In this document: positions 1-5,824 of the stretch, piece after piece
Layout: each line of letters opens with the position of its first letter
Position numbering within the stretch: the first letter of the stretch is position 1
NCBI GenBank assembly: GCA_022786965.1
Contig: JALFXH010000004.1
Coordinates: forward strand, 1 to 5,824
Length of the DNA: 5,824 nucleotides
Reading direction: 5' to 3'
Origin: Clostridiales bacterium
GTDB taxonomy: Bacteria > Bacillota > Clostridia > Oscillospirales > Oscillospiraceae
Program-made: the position numbers and the translations under genes
The notes under the pieces: generated by a model
What the model was told of the DNA's origin: nothing
Database searches by the model: none
The model's input: the letters and a program-made list of their open reading frames with translations, nothing else

Positions 1-1
1 A

Positions 2-1258
2 AATACCGAAAGTGTCCAGCCCAGCGCCGAGTACCGGGAGGCTCTGTTGGTGCTGGATGATACCAGCTACCTCCATGTTCAGCCCTGTGACACCGGCTGG
101 GACTATACGCTCTACGATGTGGTAACCATGAAGCAGATGGACGGCGGCCAGTTAAACGGGCCGGATATGGGCCGTTCCACAGCGGTAAACCATATCTGCG
201 AGGACCTGGGAATGGGCGGCAAGTCCATCAAGTATGAGCCGCTGTCTATGATCGAAACTTTGCAGGAGGCGGCCTCCCAGCAGATGCAGGAGCAGGTCAG
301 CCAGCAGACCGCAGAAACCGCCGCCCAGCTGCCGGATGCCCAGGAACAGGCGTTGGACGAGTATCCCATGCCGGACCCGGTGCTGACCCAGGACGATCTG
401 GAGAAATGCGGCTGTCTGGACAGCGACCTTCTGCCCCTCTCCAAAGAGCGGGCCTATGAGTTGATGGAGCGTGACCTGACCGTTTACATTATCCAGGAGG
501 GCGAAAATCCGGTGATGGCCTTTGACACCGCCGACCTGGACGCCCATGACGGTATCTTCGCCCTGCCCCGCGAGGAATGGGAGGAAAGCCCGGAGTTTGA
601 TAAGCTGGTCAAGGACCGCATGGCCCACCAGGAGGAACGGGAGCAGGCATTTCTCACCCACAAGGGGGACTGCTTTGCCATTTATCAGGTGAAACACACC
701 GACGAGTTGCGGGACATCCGCTACGAGGGCCTGGAATGGCTCCAATCCATCGGGCGGACGGTGCAGAGGGAAAACTATGAGCTGGTCTACACCGCTCCGT
801 TGCTGCCTTCTGATCTGAAAGGCGATACCGCTGAACAGCTCTTTTACCGCTTCAACAATGAACATCCTGTCGATTATGGCCATCCGTCCATGAGCGTCAG
901 CGACATCGTTGCCATCAAGCGGGATGGCAAGGTATCCTGTCATTACTGCGACAGCTTCGGCTTTGAGCAGGTTCCCGGATTTCTGCCGGACAATCCGCTG
1001 AAGAACGCGGAAATGGCGGTGGAGGATGACTACGGCATGATCGACGGAATCATCAACAACGGCCCCAAGGAGCCGATGGTGGCCCAGCTGGAACAGCAGG
1101 CCCGCAGCGGCCAGCCGACCTTCCTCATGGATTTGGCTGTCGCCACCCACCGGGAGGACCGGCAAAAGAAAAAGTCCGTCATGAAGCAGTTGAAAAGCCA
1201 GCCTAAGACGGAACCAAAAAAGGCAGCGCAAAAAAAGAGCGCGGAAAGGGAGCTTTGA
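2..1258 (+). CDS. YodL-like / DUF4316-like conjugative-element protein (5' end probably outside the window; alternative internal starts TTG47 or GTG50)
   Basis: The reading frame is open from base 2 to TGA 1256-1258. The track ORF starts at TTG47, with GGGAGG at 36-41 just upstream, and GTG50 is also possible. However, the 15 codons upstream keep the GC-rich third-position pattern, so the true start may lie upstream of the window. The translation carries a YodL-like signature at about nt 671-982 (FAIYQVKHTDELRDIRYEGLEWL...YELVYTAPL...EQLFYRFNNEHPVDYGHPSMSVSDIVAIKRDGKVSCHYCDSFGFEQV). A DUF4316-like motif NPLKNAEMAVEDDYGMIDGIINNG follows at about nt 992-1063, then a Lys-rich basic tail. Recognition is from memory of these families, not from a search. 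Confidence 0.8.
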   Translation, partial: NTESVQPSAEYREALLVLDDTSYLHVQPCDTGWDYTLYDVVTMKQMDGGQLNGPDMGRSTAVNHICEDLGMGGKSIKYEPLSMIETLQEAASQQMQEQVSQQTAETAAQLPDAQEQALDEYPMPDPVLTQDDLEKCGCLDSDLLPLSKERAYELMERDLTVYIIQEGENPVMAFDTADLDAHDGIFALPREEWEESPEFDKLVKDRMAHQEEREQAFLTHKGDCFAIYQVKHTDELRDIRYEGLEWLQSIGRTVQRENYELVYTAPLLPSDLKGDTAEQLFYRFNNEHPVDYGHPSMSVSDIVAIKRDGKVSCHYCDSFGFEQVPGFLPDNPLKNAEMAVEDDYGMIDGIINNGPKEPMVAQLEQQARSGQPTFLMDLAVATHREDRQKKKSVMKQLKSQPKTEPKKAAQKKSAEREL

Positions 1259-1259
1259 T

Positions 1260-1475
1260 ATGAACAACTTCACCTTTGAGGAAACGAGCCTTCTTTGCAT
1301 CTATAACACCGGCAGCCGCACCGGGCTGATCGACGCTCTGACGGAGATGCGCGGCGAGCTTTCGACGGATGAAGCCGAGTTGCGGAAGTTGACGGACAGC
1401 GCCATGGAGAAACTCCAGGCTATGAGCGATGCCGAGTTTGCTGAGCTGGAGCTGTACCCGGATTTTGAAACTTGA
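1260..1475 (+). CDS. small 'transposon-transfer assisting' family protein (71 aa)
   Basis: ATG 1260 lies 1 nt after the upstream stop (TGAtATG), and an SD GGGAG at 1248-1252 sits 7 nt upstream, which indicates translational coupling. The sequence MNNFTFEETSLLCIYNTGSRTGLIDALTEMRGEL...MSDAEFAELELYPDF matches my recollection of the small acidic family annotated as transposon-transfer assisting protein in Clostridia conjugative transposons. The stop is TGA 1473-1475. Confidence 0.8.
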   Translation: MNNFTFEETSLLCIYNTGSRTGLIDALTEMRGELSTDEAELRKLTDSAMEKLQAMSDAEFAELELYPDFET

Positions 1476-1479
1476 TTGC

Positions 1480-1507
1480 TTGTAAGTAATGAGAAATGTG
1501 GTATAAT
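1480..1507 (+). promoter_or_regulatory. SigA/sigma70-type promoter with extended -10
   Basis: The -35 is TTGTAA (1480-1485), followed by a 16-nt spacer and then TGgTATAAT (1499-1507), a perfect TATAAT with the TGn extension. It sits immediately after the stop of the preceding gene. The predicted transcription start is around 1513-1515. Confidence 0.6.
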
Positions 1508-1754
1508 TCAAAAGCAGAAAACGCCGAGCCAAGCCTCAGTTGAGGAAGGTGTAACGACTGGACACGGAGCATCCCATGTGGATGAAGGCACAGTCTGAAC
1601 TTATGGGTGACCATAAGAGCTACACAGAAATGATGTAGTCCCACAATAGTGGTGTAACAATGATGAACAAGTAGCATGAAGAATGTGAAAAGAATCGCCT
1701 CGAGCCTTGCAAAGCTCTGGGGCAAGTAGATTTTCAGTTCCGTACTAAAACAGG

Positions 1755-1768
1755 CAACTGATCAGTTG
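1755..1768. repeat. perfect 14-nt palindrome CAACTGATCAGTTG (contains GATC)
   Basis: The sequence reads the same on both strands. Flanking bases 1749-1753 and 1770-1774 extend the pairing with one G-G mismatch. A second 8-nt palindrome, AGCCGGCT, follows at 1784-1791. Confidence 0.9.
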
Positions 1769-2110
1769 GTTGTTCGTTTGCTCAGCCGGCTTTAGAAAAG
1801 TAAAAGTAAGCCACGCAAAAAGAAATCAACCAAGAGGCGTGTAATAAAATTCTTGGCTCTGATCCTAAGCATCGGAACCATGTGCTTGTGCTTGGTTTCT
1901 GATTAGATGCTCATAAGCTCAAATGACAATGTGGCTACAATCGTTGTCGTGGAAACAAACCATTGTAGCGCCGACGAAGAGGAGGTATTCAGTTGCCTCC
2001 CCATGCAGCAATGTATGGAAAACAACTCCGTAAATTCGGTGAAAGTCTGCACTAAGGGGTAGCCTATGTAATAGGTTACCCTCTACTATTAAACATTAAA
2101 ATATCAGATT

Positions 2111-2148
2111 GAAGCAGGAAATCTTTCGGGATTTCCTGCTTCTCTTTT
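2111..2148 (+). terminator. Rho-independent terminator
   Basis: GAAGCAGGAAATC (2111-2123) pairs perfectly with GATTTCCTGCTTC (2130-2142), giving a 13-bp stem. The loop is the 6-nt TTTCGG, and the stem is followed by TCTTTTA (2143-2149). Confidence 0.75.
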
Positions 2149-2161
2149 ACCCAAAAACGAA

Positions 2162-2167
2162 AGGAGG
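2162..2167 (+). promoter_or_regulatory. Shine-Dalgarno of the giant ORF
   Basis: AGGAGG lies 10 nt upstream of ATG 2178. The nearest upstream in-frame stop is TAA 2097-2099, and no earlier in-frame ATG exists. Confidence 0.7.
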
Positions 2168-2177
2168 ACAAGCAACT

Positions 2178-5100
2178 ATGCCATCCAAAGCTGAATTTTA
2201 CCGGCAGATGGCCGAACAGGTATCGACCCAGCTTGTGGGCAGCTGGAAGGAATGGACGGCTTTTCTTACCACTGCCGCCCGCCTTTATAAATACCCGTTC
2301 CATGAGCAGATGATGATATACGCCCAGCGCCCGGACGCTACCGCCTGCGCCGAGTATGACCTATGGAATGACAAAATGGGTCGGTATGTGCGCCGTGGCT
2401 CCAAGGGCATTGCCCTGGTGGACGATTCCGGCGACAAGCCCCGCCTGCGCTATGTGTTTGATATTTCCGATACTGGCACCCGTGAACATTCCCGTACACC
2501 CTGGTTGTGGCAGTTGGAAGAACAGCATATCGGCCCTGTGTCGGCCATGTTGGAGCGCAGCTACGGCGTTGCCGGTGACGATCTCGCCCAGCAGCTCACC
2601 GATGTGGCCGGAAAGCTGGCGAGTGAGTATTGGGACGAGCATCAGAGGGACTTTCGCTACATCGTTGACGATTCGTTCCTTGCGGAGTACGATGATTACA
2701 ACATCGAAGTCCAGTTTAATTCCGCCGCCACCGTCAGTATCGCCTATGCCCTGATGTCCCGCTGTGGGCTGGAGCCGGAAAACTACTTCCAGCATGAGGA
2801 CTTCATGGCGATTTTCGATTTCAACACCCCGGCCACTATTGGCGCGCTGGGAACGGCAGTCAGCCAGATCAACCAGCAGGTTTTGCGGCAGATTGGCGTC
2901 ACCATCCAGAACTATGAGCGTGAACATATCGCGGAAAGGAGCGTTACACATGGAGAACAGCCTGACTTACACGAGGAACGGAGATTACCTGATTCCCGAC
3001 CTGAAGCTGACCGAGCAGCCGGAGAAGCCCCTGGGCAAGTACGGCAGGATGCGGAAAGCGTACTTGAAGGAACACCGGCCCCTGATCTACAACCAGCTGT
3101 TGTTGACGGAGAAACTGTACCCGCACTTGCTGGAGATCGACGAGACGGCGAACAGCCGTCTGGAGCAGATGATGCCTCAGCTGGCGAAAGACGCGGGCGC
3201 GACGGAGGAGCTGAAAGCCCGCGATCCGATGCGCTGGGTGGGCCTGATGAACACCTGCAAAGCACAGGCAGAGGAGATTCTGATGACGGAGCTTATTCAC
3301 AGCTGAGTTTCTTCCTCTCCGAAGCAGAACAAATCAGAATCATAGATGAAGCAGAGAATGTGAAAACATACTCTGCTTTTTCTTTTGCCCAGGAACAGCC
3401 GCAGCCAGAAACTACCGGCCATGAGGCAGAGTCGGCAAAACTGACCCTCCGGGAACTGCATGAGCAATACAAGCCCATCGTGCTGGAGGCTGTTACCCAG
3501 GACACCAGATACCGAAACGCCTGCGGTCACAGTGACTATGAAAATGCCGTGATCGAGGGTAATGCCGCCATCCGCCGTGCTGTCCTGGGGTCTGGAAACA
3601 TGGAGCTGCTCCGCCTCTATTCCGACACGCCGGAGTTCCGTCAGCGTCTTCATTGGGAAATCATCGACGAGACCTATCCCAAGCTCCACGAGCTGCTGCG
3701 CCCTCTCTCGGACAATAACATCGACAAAGCTATCCAGGACTGGAACGGAAAAATCGAAAGTAAACACGCCGTTGTCCGTTACATGGAGAAGCATGGGCGG
3801 GAAAAAGACACCGCCGCATGGCTGGCCCATGAGTTTGACGGCAGCGACGGCAAGACTCCGTTTTCGGTTCGCCCAGAAAGCCCTGAAGGAACGGTGCTGC
3901 CCTGGCCCAAGGTACAGCGCCGGATTGCCCAGCTCATCAAGGAGAATCGGTTCTACACCGAAGCGGAACAGGACCGATTTGACAACATCGACCCTATCGC
4001 CATCCGGGAGGCGCTGGCAGAGCGCGGCATTGTGAATGGTGAGCTGGTGGACGAGGAAAAGCTGGACAATGACTCGTTCATCCAGCGTGTTATGGCGGAT
4101 GTGGAGCAGATTGCCGCTGAAGAACAGGAGCAATCAATCGAACCGCTCTCCGATGCCGAGTATGCCCGCCAGAACCTCATTCCGGGCGAAACCACCTTTG
4201 CGTTGGATGGACGCACTTTCCAGGTCAGCAAGCTGGAACCAGATATCGACCGGGTAGAGCTGCAAGATGTGACCTTTGCAAACGCGGCGGGATTCCCCAT
4301 CTTCCGGGTTGAGCCAATTTCAGTGATCCGTCAGCATTTGGAGCAGGAACCAGAACCGCCCACGCCTGCTGTCGAGCCGGAAAAAACTCTGGATGAGGTG
4401 CTGGACGAACATCCCGTTTCCATTCAGGTAAATGGCGAGTGGCAGACCTTCCCCAATGTCAAAGCTGCCGAGGAAGCCTCTTATGAGGAATACAAGGCCA
4501 ATCTGCGCCGCACCGCCGAGAATTTCCGTATCACCGACGATCACCTGGGCGAAGGCGGCCCGAAAGCCAAGTTCCAGGACAATATCACAGCAATCAAACT
4601 ACTGAAACATCTGGAGGAAACCACCGGGCAGGCAACGCCGGAACAGCAGAAAATCCTTTCCCGGTATGTGGGCTGGGGCGGGTTGGCGGATGCCTTTGAC
4701 CCCGACAAAGAAAGCTGGAGCAAGGAATATGCCCAGCTGAAGGAGCTGCTGACCCCGGAAGAATATGCCGCTGCCAGAGGTTCCACCCTCAACGCGCACT
4801 ACACCAGCCCTACGGTCATCAAAGCGATTTACGAGGCTGTGGGCCGTATGGGATTTGAGACCGGCAACATCCTGGAGCCGTCCTGTGGTGTGGGCAATTT
4901 CTTCGGTATGCTGCCGGAGGAAATGCAAAACAGCCGTCTTTACGGCGTGGAGCTGGATTCCATCAGCGGGCGTATTGCCCAGCAGCTCTATCCCAAGGCC
5001 GACATCACTGTGGCAGGGTTTGAGACCACCGACAGGCGGGATTTCTACGATCTGGCGGTGGGCAATGTTCCGTTTGGCCAGTATCAGGTTCGGGATAAAG

Positions 5101-5824
5101 TCTATGACAAGCTGAATTTCAGCATTCACAACTACTTTTTCGCCAAGGCTCTGGATCAGGTTCGTCCCGGTGGCGTGGTGGCATTTGTCACCAGCCGCTA
5201 TACGATGGACGCCAAAGATTCCACCGTGCGCCGGTATCTTGCTCAGCGCGCCGAGCTGCTGGGGGCCATCCGTCTGCCCAATGACACTTTCAAAAAGAAC
5301 GCCGGTGCCGAGGTCGTTTCGGACATCATCTTCCTGCAAAAGCGTGACCGTCCGTTGGACATCGTGCCGGAGTGGACTCAGACCGGGCAGACCGAGGACG
5401 GCTTTGCCATCAACCGCTATTTCCTGGACCACCCGGAAATGGTGCTGGGTCGACAGGAACCGGAAAGCACCGCCCATGGTATGGACTACACCGTGAATCC
5501 CATTGAGGGGCTGGAGCTGGCCGATCAGCTGCATGATGCCGTGAAGTACATTCGCGGCACTTACCAGGAGGCCGAGCTGCCGGAGCTGGGCGAGGGCGAA
5601 GCCATCGACACTTCTATCCCTGCTGACCCCAATGTGAAAAACTACTCCTACACCGTTGTGGACGGTGATGTGTACTACCGTGAAAATAGCCGTATGGTGC
5701 GGCCTGACCTGAACGCCACCGCTGAGGCCCGTGTGAAAGGGCTGGTGGGGCTGCGGGAATGTGTCCAGCAGCTCATTGATCTGCAAATGGACGCCGCCAC
5801 ACCGGACAGCGCCATCCAGGATAA
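2178..5824 (+). CDS. giant polyvalent conjugative-element protein, N-terminal >=1215 aa (3' partial): ArdC-N-like ssDNA-binding domain, disordered linker, helical modules, N6-adenine DNA methyltransferase (N12-class / phage P1 DarB-like)
   Basis: This ORF is not in the supplied track, presumably because it has no stop in the window. I translated the frame whose codons start at positions divisible by 3, from ATG 2178 to 5822, and checked every TAA/TAG/TGA-looking site; none is in frame. The N-terminus (about nt 2250-2463: LYKYPFHEQMMIYAQRPDATACAEYDLWNDKMGRYVRRGSKGIALV) resembles the ArdC N-terminal (DUF1738) ssDNA-binding fold. Positions 2950-3300 translate to a D/E/R/G/A/P-rich, low-complexity linker. 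From about 4500 the sequence NFRITDDHLGEGGPKAKFQDNITAIKLLKHLE...YVGWGGLADAFD...NAHYTSPTVIKAIYEAV leads into AdoMet motif I, LEPSCGVGNFFG (4872-4907), and catalytic motif IV, VGNVPFG (5058-5078). GC-rich third-codon positions are seen throughout except 2950-3306. It remains uncertain whether the whole ORF is translated as one chain across the nested tnpV. Confidence 0.8.
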   Translation, partial: MPSKAEFYRQMAEQVSTQLVGSWKEWTAFLTTAARLYKYPFHEQMMIYAQRPDATACAEYDLWNDKMGRYVRRGSKGIALVDDSGDKPRLRYVFDISDTGTREHSRTPWLWQLEEQHIGPVSAMLERSYGVAGDDLAQQLTDVAGKLASEYWDEHQRDFRYIVDDSFLAEYDDYNIEVQFNSAATVSIAYALMSRCGLEPENYFQHEDFMAIFDFNTPATIGALGTAVSQINQQVLRQIGVTIQNYEREHIAERSVTHGEQPDLHEERRLPDSRPEADRAAGEAPGQVRQDAESVLEGTPAPDLQPAVVDGETVPALAGDRRDGEQPSGADDASAGERRGRDGGAESPRSDALGGPDEHLQSTGRGDSDDGAYSQLSFFLSEAEQIRIIDEAENVKTYSAFSFAQEQPQPETTGHEAESAKLTLRELHEQYKPIVLEAVTQDTRYRNACGHSDYENAVIEGNAAIRRAVLGSGNMELLRLYSDTPEFRQRLHWEIIDETYPKLHELLRPLSDNNIDKAIQDWNGKIESKHAVVRYMEKHGREKDTAAWLAHEFDGSDGKTPFSVRPESPEGTVLPWPKVQRRIAQLIKENRFYTEAEQDRFDNIDPIAIREALAERGIVNGELVDEEKLDNDSFIQRVMADVEQIAAEEQEQSIEPLSDAEYARQNLIPGETTFALDGRTFQVSKLEPDIDRVELQDVTFANAAGFPIFRVEPISVIRQHLEQEPEPPTPAVEPEKTLDEVLDEHPVSIQVNGEWQTFPNVKAAEEASYEEYKANLRRTAENFRITDDHLGEGGPKAKFQDNITAIKLLKHLEETTGQATPEQQKILSRYVGWGGLADAFDPDKESWSKEYAQLKELLTPEEYAAARGSTLNAHYTSPTVIKAIYEAVGRMGFETGNILEPSCGVGNFFGMLPEEMQNSRLYGVELDSISGRIAQQLYPKADITVAGFETTDRRDFYDLAVGNVPFGQYQVRDKVYDKLNFSIHNYFFAKALDQVRPGGVVAFVTSRYTMDAKDSTVRRYLAQRAELLGAIRLPNDTFKKNAGAEVVSDIIFLQKRDRPLDIVPEWTQTGQTEDGFAINRYFLDHPEMVLGRQEPESTAHGMDYTVNPIEGLELADQLHDAVKYIRGTYQEAELPELGEGEAIDTSIPADPNVKNYSYTVVDGDVYYRENSRMVRPDLNATAEARVKGLVGLRECVQQLIDLQMDAATPDSAIQD
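2936..2941 (+). promoter_or_regulatory. Shine-Dalgarno of nested tnpV
   Basis: AAGGAG lies 8 nt upstream of ATG 2950, inside the giant ORF. Confidence 0.6.
2950..3306 (+). CDS. tnpV: TnpV-family transposon-encoded protein (118 aa), nested in the +1 frame within the giant ORF
   Basis: An ATG at 2950 has a canonical SD, and the stop is TGA 3304-3306. The translation MENSLTYTRNGDYLIPDLKL...PLGKYGRMRKAYLKEHRPLIYNQLLLTEKLYPHLLEIDETANSRLE...GATEELKARDPMRWVGLMNTCKAQAEEILMTELI follows the TnpV pattern as I remember it (GDYL.P.L...G.wG....YLKEHR..Y..LL...L..hL.eID..A...........G.tE.LKa.d...WV..mN....AeEi...E.I). Third-codon positions are strongly G/C-biased in this frame over 2950-3306, so this is the frame under coding selection here. 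The track's upstream extension to 2764 lacks family-like sequence. Confidence 0.8.
   Translation: MENSLTYTRNGDYLIPDLKLTEQPEKPLGKYGRMRKAYLKEHRPLIYNQLLLTEKLYPHLLEIDETANSRLEQMMPQLAKDAGATEELKARDPMRWVGLMNTCKAQAEEILMTELIHS

Follow-up and report, generated by a model that had tools for sequence, protein, structure and literature searches.

What kind of gene, if any, occupies a 702-nt spacer of a conjugative element in which no conventional protein gene is apparent? The spacer lies on the + strand at positions 1476-2177 of the window, the 5,824-nt stretch of DNA from a Clostridiales bacterium that was analysed here (contig JALFXH010000004.1, positions 1 to 5,824). It had been picked out earlier, from its letters alone, as a candidate large structured RNA of unknown family (the original prediction). 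Taken as a whole, the locus is best explained by a stand-alone cassette, from 1476 to ~2100, that carries a natural circularly permuted group I ribozyme and would yield a 321-nt circular messenger RNA (mRNA). We give this reading a probability of roughly 0.8.

Composition and folding of the spacer

G+C content is 43.2% over 1501-2160 (285/660, exactly the earlier hand count), compared with 57.4% in the upstream flank (1-1475) and 56.5% downstream (2178-5824). No Pfam family matches the spacer in any of its six frames, in agreement with the earlier view that a conventional gene is absent, and each frame holds 7-15 stop codons (13-15 in the + frames). The longest + strand frames had been put at about 20 codons, which is too low: open reading frames (ORFs) of 51 aa (1907-2062) and 40 aa (1476-1598) are present. 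A decayed protein gene was considered and rejected, as neither the six-frame Pfam search nor a comparison of a composite six-frame pseudo-protein with 5.8 billion proteins gave a match. When folding is compared with that of shuffled sequences, the stretch 1513-2105, with the terminator left out, scores z = -4.9 on the + strand and -3.2 on the - strand; over 1951-2100 the values are -4.6 and -0.9.

Searches with the spacer in its native order returned little. The covariance models of OLE, ROOL, GOLLD, HEARO and raiA did not match the isolated region even at E <= 10, a BLAST search of plasmids and phages with all 702 nt in native order found nothing, and an exact 37-mer of the spacer had no match in IMG/VR. 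Rfam scans of the whole window and, as had been proposed, of the region by itself gave no family at gathering level for the spacer; the top match was a weak one to the group I intron model (RF00028), at 15.7 bits on the isolated region.

Two halves of a group I intron in swapped order

Rfam misses the element because its domains stand in permuted order. When 1513-1640 is searched alone, the group I model aligns in 5'-truncated form, from model position 82 to the last, over 1513-1617, and assigns P5', J5/4, P4', P6, J6/7, P3', P8, J8/7 and P9. In the thermodynamic fold, the P5', P4' and P3' strands find their partners ~500 nt downstream, in the order P3-P4-P5; the joiners between the partner strands, AAAU and AAAG, are typical of J3/4 and J4/5, and hairpins P2 and P1 lie upstream of them. 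Both intron halves are therefore present, in swapped order. The + strand reads 3' half (1514-1665), a 321-nt "exon" (1666-1986) and 5' half (1987-2050), with ~215 nt of intron sequence in total. The 3' half runs P5'-P4'-P6-P7-P3'-P8-P9-P9.1-P9.2 and the 5' half P1-P2-P3-P4-P5, with the break in the P5 loop.

This order was examined by homology as well. An un-permuted construct, in which 1979-2050, a GAAA linker and 1514-1625 were joined in silico, is collinear in BLAST with canonical introns across the artificial joint. It matches introns of Klebsiella phage RCIP0099 (L092, E 4e-9), Bacillus mycoides plasmid p53 (L094, 2e-6) and Vibrio phage 1.193.O (L096, 3e-5); Rfam confirms these three, all of which have a tiny P5 hairpin, with scores of 71-92 bits, and other matched introns lie in split terminase and capsid genes. 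The 16-mers AAUUCGGUGAAAGUCU (5' half) and GGAAGGUGUAACGACU are common to the element and the Rfam-confirmed introns. A profile hidden Markov model (HMM) was built from 74 canonical relatives collected in IMG/VR. On the native window it matches in reversed order, HMM positions 103-246 at 1516-1623 (E 9e-14) and 26-96 at 1989-2053 (E 3e-8), and on the un-permuted construct it gives a single match over HMM 32-246 (69.8 bits, E 1e-22); these E-values are somewhat inflated, as the canonical set was gathered with window-derived motifs, a caveat that counts against our reading.

The strands can be followed base by base along the + strand. The 3' half opens with the P5 3' strand GCAGA (1514-1518), which pairs with 2046-2050 at a probability of 0.996, and J5/4 AAA (1519-1521), both placed by the 5'-truncated Rfam alignment. 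Next come the P4 3' strand CGCCGA (1522-1527, paired with 2036-2041, probability 0.96) and the P6 hairpin (GCC AAG CCUC aguu GAGG AAG GU, 1528-1550), which contains the conserved AGCCAAG motif. J6/7 GUAAC and the P7 5' strand GACUG (1556-1560) together fill 1551-1560, by homology to canonical introns, and the P3 3' strand ACGGAG (1564-1569) pairs with 2026-2031 at a probability of 0.67. P8 (1570-1584), with compensatory changes in relatives, precedes J8/7 AAGGCA (1585-1590) and the P7 3' strand CAGUC (1591-1595), which core homology and the complementarity of P7 place here. P9 (1600-1617) has a GUGA loop and covaries in 4 of 7 pairs; P9.1 (1619-1639), with the conserved loop AGAAAUGA, covaries in all six. 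P9.2 (1641-1652) is conserved upstream of the 3' splice site, and GUAACAA (1654-1660) followed by UGAUG, ending in the predicted terminal guanosine G1665, completes the half in an alignment with 30 relatives.

Beyond the exon, which spans 107 codons between the two predicted splice sites and contains conserved hairpins, P1 (GGAGGU^A uucagu UGCCUCC, 1981-2000) has a U1986.G1995 wobble that relatives retain. P2 with its GCAA loop (2001-2018) opens the remainder of the 5' half and leads through J2/3 to the P3 5' strand CUCCGU (2026-2031), J3/4 AAAU, the P4 5' strand UCGGUG (2036-2041), J4/5 AAAG and the P5 5' strand UCUGC (2046-2050), all within the profile match to canonical introns at 1989-2053. 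Directly after P5 stands a 12-bp terminator-like hairpin with a weak U tract (2056-2082), which is the cassette's own; relatives likewise have a hairpin directly after the P5 5' strand.

At the other end, no site in the window matches sigma-70 better than the promoter earlier proposed at 1480-1507 on the + strand (10/12, with TG). This promoter comprises a -35 box TTGTAA (1480-1485), a 16-nt spacer and an extended -10 box TGgTATAAT (1499-1507). The start expected at ~1513, also part of the original prediction, fits the anatomy, since it falls 1-2 bases before the first ribozyme helix begins at 1514. Many members of the family have a TATAAT-like box equally far upstream of the P5 3' strand.

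Measured against group I introns, the element has the core helices P3-P9, the joiners J3/4, J4/5, J6/7 and J8/7, and a P1 with a U.G wobble. It lacks the linear P1-to-P9 order with terminal splice sites, a score at Rfam's gathering level and the interruption of a host gene. Measured against permuted intron-exon (PIE) constructs, it has a 3' half, an exon and a 5' half on one predicted transcript, with halves able to pair. It is a circularly permuted variant of a group I ribozyme, and new as such. The assignment to an unknown family in the size class of OLE, ROOL and GOLLD thus gives way to homology with group I introns, a class that had not been among those considered. That group II hallmarks are lacking was correct: no Rfam group II model (D5/D6, D1-D4) matches, and the core is that of group I.

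A conserved family of permuted relatives

The window element is not alone. A core-motif scan of IMG/VR gave 122 matches, 106 of them canonical, and in several of the other 16 the 5' half lies 300-560 nt downstream, not upstream. A clade-specific pattern found 41 viral contigs in IMG/VR; all that reach far enough are permuted and none is canonical. A metagenome scan added ~20 contigs with permuted relatives, including the closest relatives of the window element (L266, L268/L291, L259/L274/L290/L295, L242/L254, L215/L276, L264 and L267). Altogether, 71 fetched loci hold permuted elements, with at least 31 distinct sequences.

We aligned 26 distinct sequences, with the exon removed, to the group I structure including the P7 pseudoknot. 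Standard pairs form at 94.6% of pair positions, compared with 33-40% in slid controls; 34 of 64 pairs have compensatory changes, and none of 500 shuffles reaches any of these measures. In P5, where one end of the RNA pairs with the other, four of the five pairs have compensatory changes, and relatives often have a longer P5 of 11-21 bp. P3 changes compensatorily in 4 of 6 pairs, P6 and P8 also do so, and P4 is 100% paired. P7 is invariant and complementary, the core joiners are invariant, and the U.G wobble at the predicted 5' splice site is kept in 24 of the 26. The circular permutation and its conservation can be read directly from these alignments. Conserved helices with compensatory changes across relatives mean that the permuted architecture is under selection and therefore not a one-off rearrangement.

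The covariation analysis that the original prediction had called for also bears on its individual helices. Three of these are conserved parts of the ribozyme, namely 1620-1638 (P9.1), 1981-2000 (P1) and 2001-2018 (P2), and the helix at 1830-1856, within the exon, is retained with compensatory changes in relatives, as is one at ~1923-1950. A long-range closure between 1526-1537 and 1834-1837 plus 1852-1859 found no support; the actual closure is made by 1514-1518/2046-2050, 1522-1527/2036-2041 and 1564-1569/2026-2031.

Nine metagenome contigs carry an identical insert, with no differences in 635 nt, also in copies whose flanking genes differ by 4-11%, a pattern that indicates recent spread by recombination. 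These copies carry no information for covariation. A separate observation concerns an IMG/VR contig (L174, 3300045988_123410), whose reverse strand holds two group I 3' halves without an upstream 5' half, at ~3170-3800 and ~4760-5500. Behind both of them comes tape-measure-like coding sequence, and for one of the two a 5' half lies 555 nt downstream; they may be further permuted or split introns within a phage tape-measure gene.

Predicted splice sites and predicted circular product

The predicted 5' splice site follows a conserved GAGGU, that is, it lies after U1986 in the window. The predicted 3' splice site falls between 1665 and 1666, with G1665 as the terminal guanosine in the alignment with 30 relatives. 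Throughout the permuted clade, P9, P9.1, P9.2 and GUAACAA are followed by a conserved G 3-5 nt later; in the canonical relatives of phage tape-measure genes, the 3' splice site is closely preceded by P9, one extra hairpin and GRUAACAA. G1617, the first candidate for this site (with a 369-nt circle), was dropped, as P9.1, P9.2 and GUAACAA are conserved upstream of G1665.

From these sites the predicted product is a 321-nt circular RNA, 1666-1986, with U1986 joined to A1666, as standard group I chemistry and engineered permuted introns would have it (PMC6035260, PMC8554844). Transcription would start from the cassette promoter at ~1513, and the RNA would open with the intron 3' half ending in G1665, followed by the 321-nt exon and the 5' half (1987-2050). 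Pairing of the transcript ends through P5, P4 and P3 would rebuild a normal group I core whose only break lies in the P5 loop. A guanosine would then attack after U1986, and the freed 3'-OH of U1986 would attack after G1665. Because the splice sites stand in reverse order, the products would be a 321-nt circle and two intron halves. Back-splicing to a circle is strongly implied. The middle of the RNA is probably a spliced-out, circular and possibly translated product and not part of one large fold. The predicted back-splice junction U1986-A1666 reads GAGGAGGU joined to AACAAGUAGC, in a longer form ...GAAGAGGAGGU joined to AACAAGUAGCAUG... and, as a 24-mer, GAAGAGGAGGTAACAAGTAGCATG.

A reading frame that closes on itself

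Under one fixed splice-site rule, 21 of 31 unique elements have a predicted circle that is 3n long (135-222 nt) with one frame free of stops; shuffling predicts 2.7. Generally in the family, GAGGU or GGAGGU closes the exon and the junction is followed within 1-22 nt by an in-frame AUG, which means that a ribosome-binding site (RBS) and a start codon are juxtaposed only in the circle. A few permuted relatives fall outside the simple rule (L236/L251, L170 and L265/L272): L236 lacks P9.1 and has an atypical P1, and the predicted circles of L170 and L265/L272 are not 3n. Wrongly assigned splice sites are the probable cause, unless these elements are non-coding variants.

The subclade of the window has longer circles, of 300-336 nt, all 3n. 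The closed frame of its seven elements contains 15 UAG codons (three in the window copy, two in L268, two in L259, one in L242, two in L215, two in L264 and three in L267) and no UAA or UGA, compared with a UAG share of 18% among 383 stops in the other two frames. The position of the first UAG is conserved (..WGK-UAG), a further one comes after ..VSD, and L301 and L302 have these two as well. In the window copy, GGAGGU (1981-1986) ends 10 nt upstream of AUG 1676 once the RNA is circularised. This AUG opens a 17-aa ORF on the + strand, ORF1 (MKNVKRIASSLAKLWGK, 1676-1729, with its UAG stop at 1727-1729), for which circularisation alone supplies a Shine-Dalgarno sequence (SD). A short ORF in the same place, ending at the conserved UAG, is found in L268, L259, L242, L215, L264, L267, L301 and L302. 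The second in-frame UAG (1793-1795) is specific to the window copy. The third (1904-1906) is the conserved ..VSD-UAG, has AUG 1907 directly after it, and is preceded by codons for a basic stretch and a hydrophobic, membrane-like segment (..KRRVIKFLALILSIGTMCLCLVSD). The predicted junction-spanning peptide is ..ADEEEVTSSMKNV.., and whole-circle translations can be aligned between members of the subclade.

We consider three extensions of the circle as hypotheses: its translation, gating by UAG, and any biological role. The circle would serve as an mRNA in which the junction sets GGAGGU before AUG 1676 and the 107-codon frame closes on itself. With UAG as a stop, the first product would be the 17-aa peptide; with UAG read through, translation would go round and round and make a repetitive polypeptide with a membrane-like segment. 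A joint reading of all this would be a previously undescribed bacterial and phage gene family whose product arises only after circularisation by the ribozyme. Back-splicing would build the RBS and close the frame for endless translation, and the UAGs of the subclade would gate it. Read-through, for example via the suppressor tRNA of a phage that uses UAG as a sense codon, would then release an infection-triggered, membrane-directed toxin, which would make the element abortive-infection cargo. We hold this full scenario to be rather doubtful.

Two database proteins touch on the same codons. The translations of P0122 (L301 57-542) and P0123 (L302 102-647) run through the conserved amber codons into the ribozyme 5' half, and such database proteins can conceal in-frame stops. 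That they have Gln, encoded by CAG, at the UAG positions was an observation that we withdrew: the DNA reads TAG, and the gene caller had used TAG=Gln.

RNA structure and coding overlap at 1697-1723, within ORF1, where a hairpin (GCCUC GAGC..GCUC UGGGGC) changes compensatorily in L268, L259 and L242 while the encoded residues change. No circle-encoded polypeptide matched a family of known function in Pfam or PHROG.

Several observations weigh against the reading of the locus as a permuted ribozyme with a circular mRNA. For the ribozyme, the Rfam score is 14-16 bits (15.7 and 14.1) against a gathering score of 50, and J8/7 reads AAGGCA where the common consensus is AAGAUA, yet it is invariant within the clade. 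P10, AAC (1666-1668) with GUU (1992-1994), is only 3 bp long (2-4 bp in the family), and the exact 3' splice site rests on alignment, with G1662 as an alternative that would give a 324-nt circle. For the coding part, the closed frame of the window copy is broken by three UAGs, and mutation has removed from it the internal AUGs at which the membrane peptide of L268 and L259 begins; this copy may be read-through-dependent or partly decayed. Codon-position bias between relatives is weak. Conservation of the exon may be partly structural and not coding, because its hairpins are conserved (32 of 65 pairs with compensatory changes in five sequences). No suppressor tRNA was found near any of the elements, and the flanking genes gave no clear sign of a recoded genetic code, in a test that is uninformative on these high-GC contigs.

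A rare cargo in a variable slot

The setting of the element was compared among 80 related conjugative elements in GTDB species-representative genomes, whose downstream gene encodes a protein 82-96% identical to that of the window. None of the 80 contains the permuted element. In most of them only ~80 nt, which include a GC-rich terminator, separate TTRAP from the gene that follows (L001-L080, ~3915-4001), and 18 hold low-GC cassettes of 0.5-1.6 kb with unrelated protein genes in the same slot, including a methyltransferase, an HD hydrolase, a CPBP protease, GNAT with VanZ, and an HTH protein. Of the window spacer, only the last ~60 nt (hairpin 2111-2142 and SD) recurs, behind unrelated cassettes. 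The shared slot hairpin, AGCAGGAAATC..GATTTCCTGCT, closes unrelated cargo in L003, L025, L027, L035, L041, L043, L044, L049, L050, L067, L068 and L076. Positions 1476 to ~2100 are therefore one cargo variant, and the terminator is the slot's. In the window the slot is bordered at 1473-1480 and 2100-2177, and the element sits between the TTRAP stop codon and the SD of the next gene and interrupts no host gene.

Two earlier claims can be judged in this light. The terminator proposed at 2111-2148 on the + strand (hairpin 2111-2142 plus T tract) is indeed the only strong terminator on that strand, but it belongs to the cargo slot and recurs behind unrelated cargo. The locus is, as had been proposed, a self-contained and highly structured RNA gene that has its own promoter and lacks a conventional ORF. 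A suggested part in the establishment or regulation of the conjugative element does not hold as a conserved role, as 80 related elements do without it. A conserved backbone function, as an origin of transfer (oriT) or a regulator, was rejected for the same reason and because the cargo at this site varies; the element is an infrequent occupant of the slot and no part of the backbone.

Alternative readings

The alternative that survives best has the two halves act between molecules, by trans-splicing to linear concatemers or by guide-directed cutting or splicing of other RNAs, such as those of phages. Reactions in trans are possible for permuted and split group I introns, as engineered cases demonstrate (PMC12270912, PMC12336344), and any target of the SD-like form ..GGAGGU could be recognised by the internal guide GCCUCC. 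The terminal P5, so often lengthened in relatives, favours intramolecular folding, however, and only the formation of a circle explains the 3n lengths and the closed frame. We judge action in trans to be unlikely.

We think it very unlikely that the locus is a defunct remnant, in which a tandem duplication or rearrangement broke up a canonical group I intron that now travels as junk cargo. Such an order would most obviously arise when a duplication is then truncated, the window copy has UAGs in frame and has lost internal AUGs, and the nine identical metagenome copies are silent on selection. A remnant would hardly account for the at least 31 permuted relatives in which compensatory changes preserve every core helix, those between the two ends among them, nor for the invariant core joiners and P7, the promoters just upstream of P5' throughout the family and exon lengths that stay 3n.

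An ordinary small-protein operon with structured untranslated regions and a chance likeness to introns is highly improbable. Small ORFs with start codons do occur in relatives, L268 for instance encoding a membrane peptide of 35 aa, and ORFs have been predicted here by gene callers, but the likeness is not a matter of chance (E 1e-22; covariation), the ORFs lack an SD in the linear RNA, and 21 relatives have no stop between the splice sites.

Least credible is a new ornate large non-coding RNA that folds as one over ~630 nt and aids establishment of the element, which the lack of an Rfam match at gathering level, the strongly negative folding z-scores and the presence of a promoter and a terminator had suggested, since both ends are homologous to group I introns, the middle (~135-336 nt) is variable and coding-like, and the 80 related conjugative elements lack the element.

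Relation to known systems

The favoured reading, a natural permuted group I ribozyme, invites comparison with its canonical kin. Canonical phage group I introns (RF00028; L094, L096, L092) have the same P3-P9 core, joiners, P1 U.G wobble and GNRA loops on P2 and P9. The window element differs in being permuted at the P5 loop, with internal and reversed splice sites, its own promoter and no host gene. It also lacks the P7.1/P7.2-type insert of its canonical relatives, and its J8/7-P7 reads AAGGCACAGUC.

PIE constructs for circular RNA were reportedly engineered by Puttaraju and Been in 1992. Their architecture is identical, 3' half-exon-5' half, with a circular exon and two half-introns as the expected products. 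The window element differs in that it is natural, belongs to a covarying family on mobile elements, and is broken in L5 with a promoter at the break. Endless ORFs on PIE-type circles have also been engineered, as "loopable translation" (PMC6035260; PMC8554844). Natural circularly permuted group II ribozymes have been described as stand-alone elements, often on mobile DNA, that form circles in vitro and whose function is unknown (Roth et al. 2021, PMC8637638). They too have permuted self-splicing domains, but belong to a different class, with D5/D6 moved to the 5' end, and their circles are 15-86 nt long, poorly conserved and non-coding, whereas those predicted here measure 135-336 nt and resemble mRNAs. 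In mushroom-coral mitochondria, the exon order of the giant group I intron ND5-717 requires back-splicing (Chi et al. 2019, PMC6545197); unlike the window element, that intron resides in a eukaryotic organelle, where it repairs a scrambled protein gene, and is neither a stand-alone cassette nor associated with an endless ORF.

DRT2 is said to create a never-ending ORF, "Neo", by rolling-circle reverse transcription into concatemeric cDNA (Science 2024). It too is a bacterial mobile or defence-associated element in which a repeating stop-free ORF appears only after a change of nucleic-acid topology, but by an entirely different mechanism, through a reverse transcriptase there and, as predicted, an RNA circle made by a ribozyme here. 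A defence role for the window element is conjecture.

In a non-exhaustive literature search, neither natural group I ribozymes in permuted form from bacteria or phages nor ribozyme-made circular mRNAs with closed frames came to light. The literature on permuted group I RNAs consists of engineered tools and the mushroom-coral mitochondrial case (PMC6545197), with group II as an analogy (PMC8637638). Among the models of Rfam 15, none detects the permuted elements; where covariance models depend on order, RNAs of a known class go unnoticed once they are permuted. Therapeutic circular RNA is made mainly with permuted group I introns, which have been regarded as a laboratory invention. If our reading is true, a family with at least 31 distinct members in nature would mean that evolution reached the same trick, and bacteria would already hold compact ribozymes (~215 nt of intron) optimised for circularisation. 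They would also be the first candidates for ribozyme-made circular mRNAs in bacteria and would raise the prospect of natural rolling-circle translation.

Neighbouring genes and further observations

The window is a complete contig of a Clostridiales metagenome-assembled genome. Upstream of the spacer, it contains the 3' part of a YodL/LPD16/DUF4316 gene (to 1258) and the TTRAP gene (71 aa, 1260-1475). Downstream, a long ORF starts at 2178 and is open to the window end. It had been described as a giant anti-restriction gene, but it is not simply that: an N-terminal domain is followed by an out-of-frame TnpV ORF and an Eco57I-like methylase region.

Permuted relatives are found in varied settings. 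Some lie in mobilisable elements beside a MobA/MobL relaxase and a DUF3847 protein, others beside an ABC ATPase and a DUF4429 protein or beside a type I restriction R subunit, and others in prophage regions with Bro-N antirepressors and XRE-like repressors. The neighbourhood of the slot is a defence-gene hotspot, territory of an accessory or defence type. In two loci with the same TTRAP or the same downstream gene (L086 3396-9363 and L091 3137-7447), type I restriction-modification genes with HamA, or BREX genes (BrxA, BrxB, BrxC), lie nearby.

The TnpV ORF (PF14198, window 2950-3306) is complete, has its own SD and ATG and lies in another frame within the long ORF that starts at 2178. The same nested arrangement is present in L001, L002, L004, L010 and L039, and many database relatives are 375-aa in-frame fusions of the N-terminal domain and TnpV. 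The nested TnpV could reflect overlapping genes or frameshifting.

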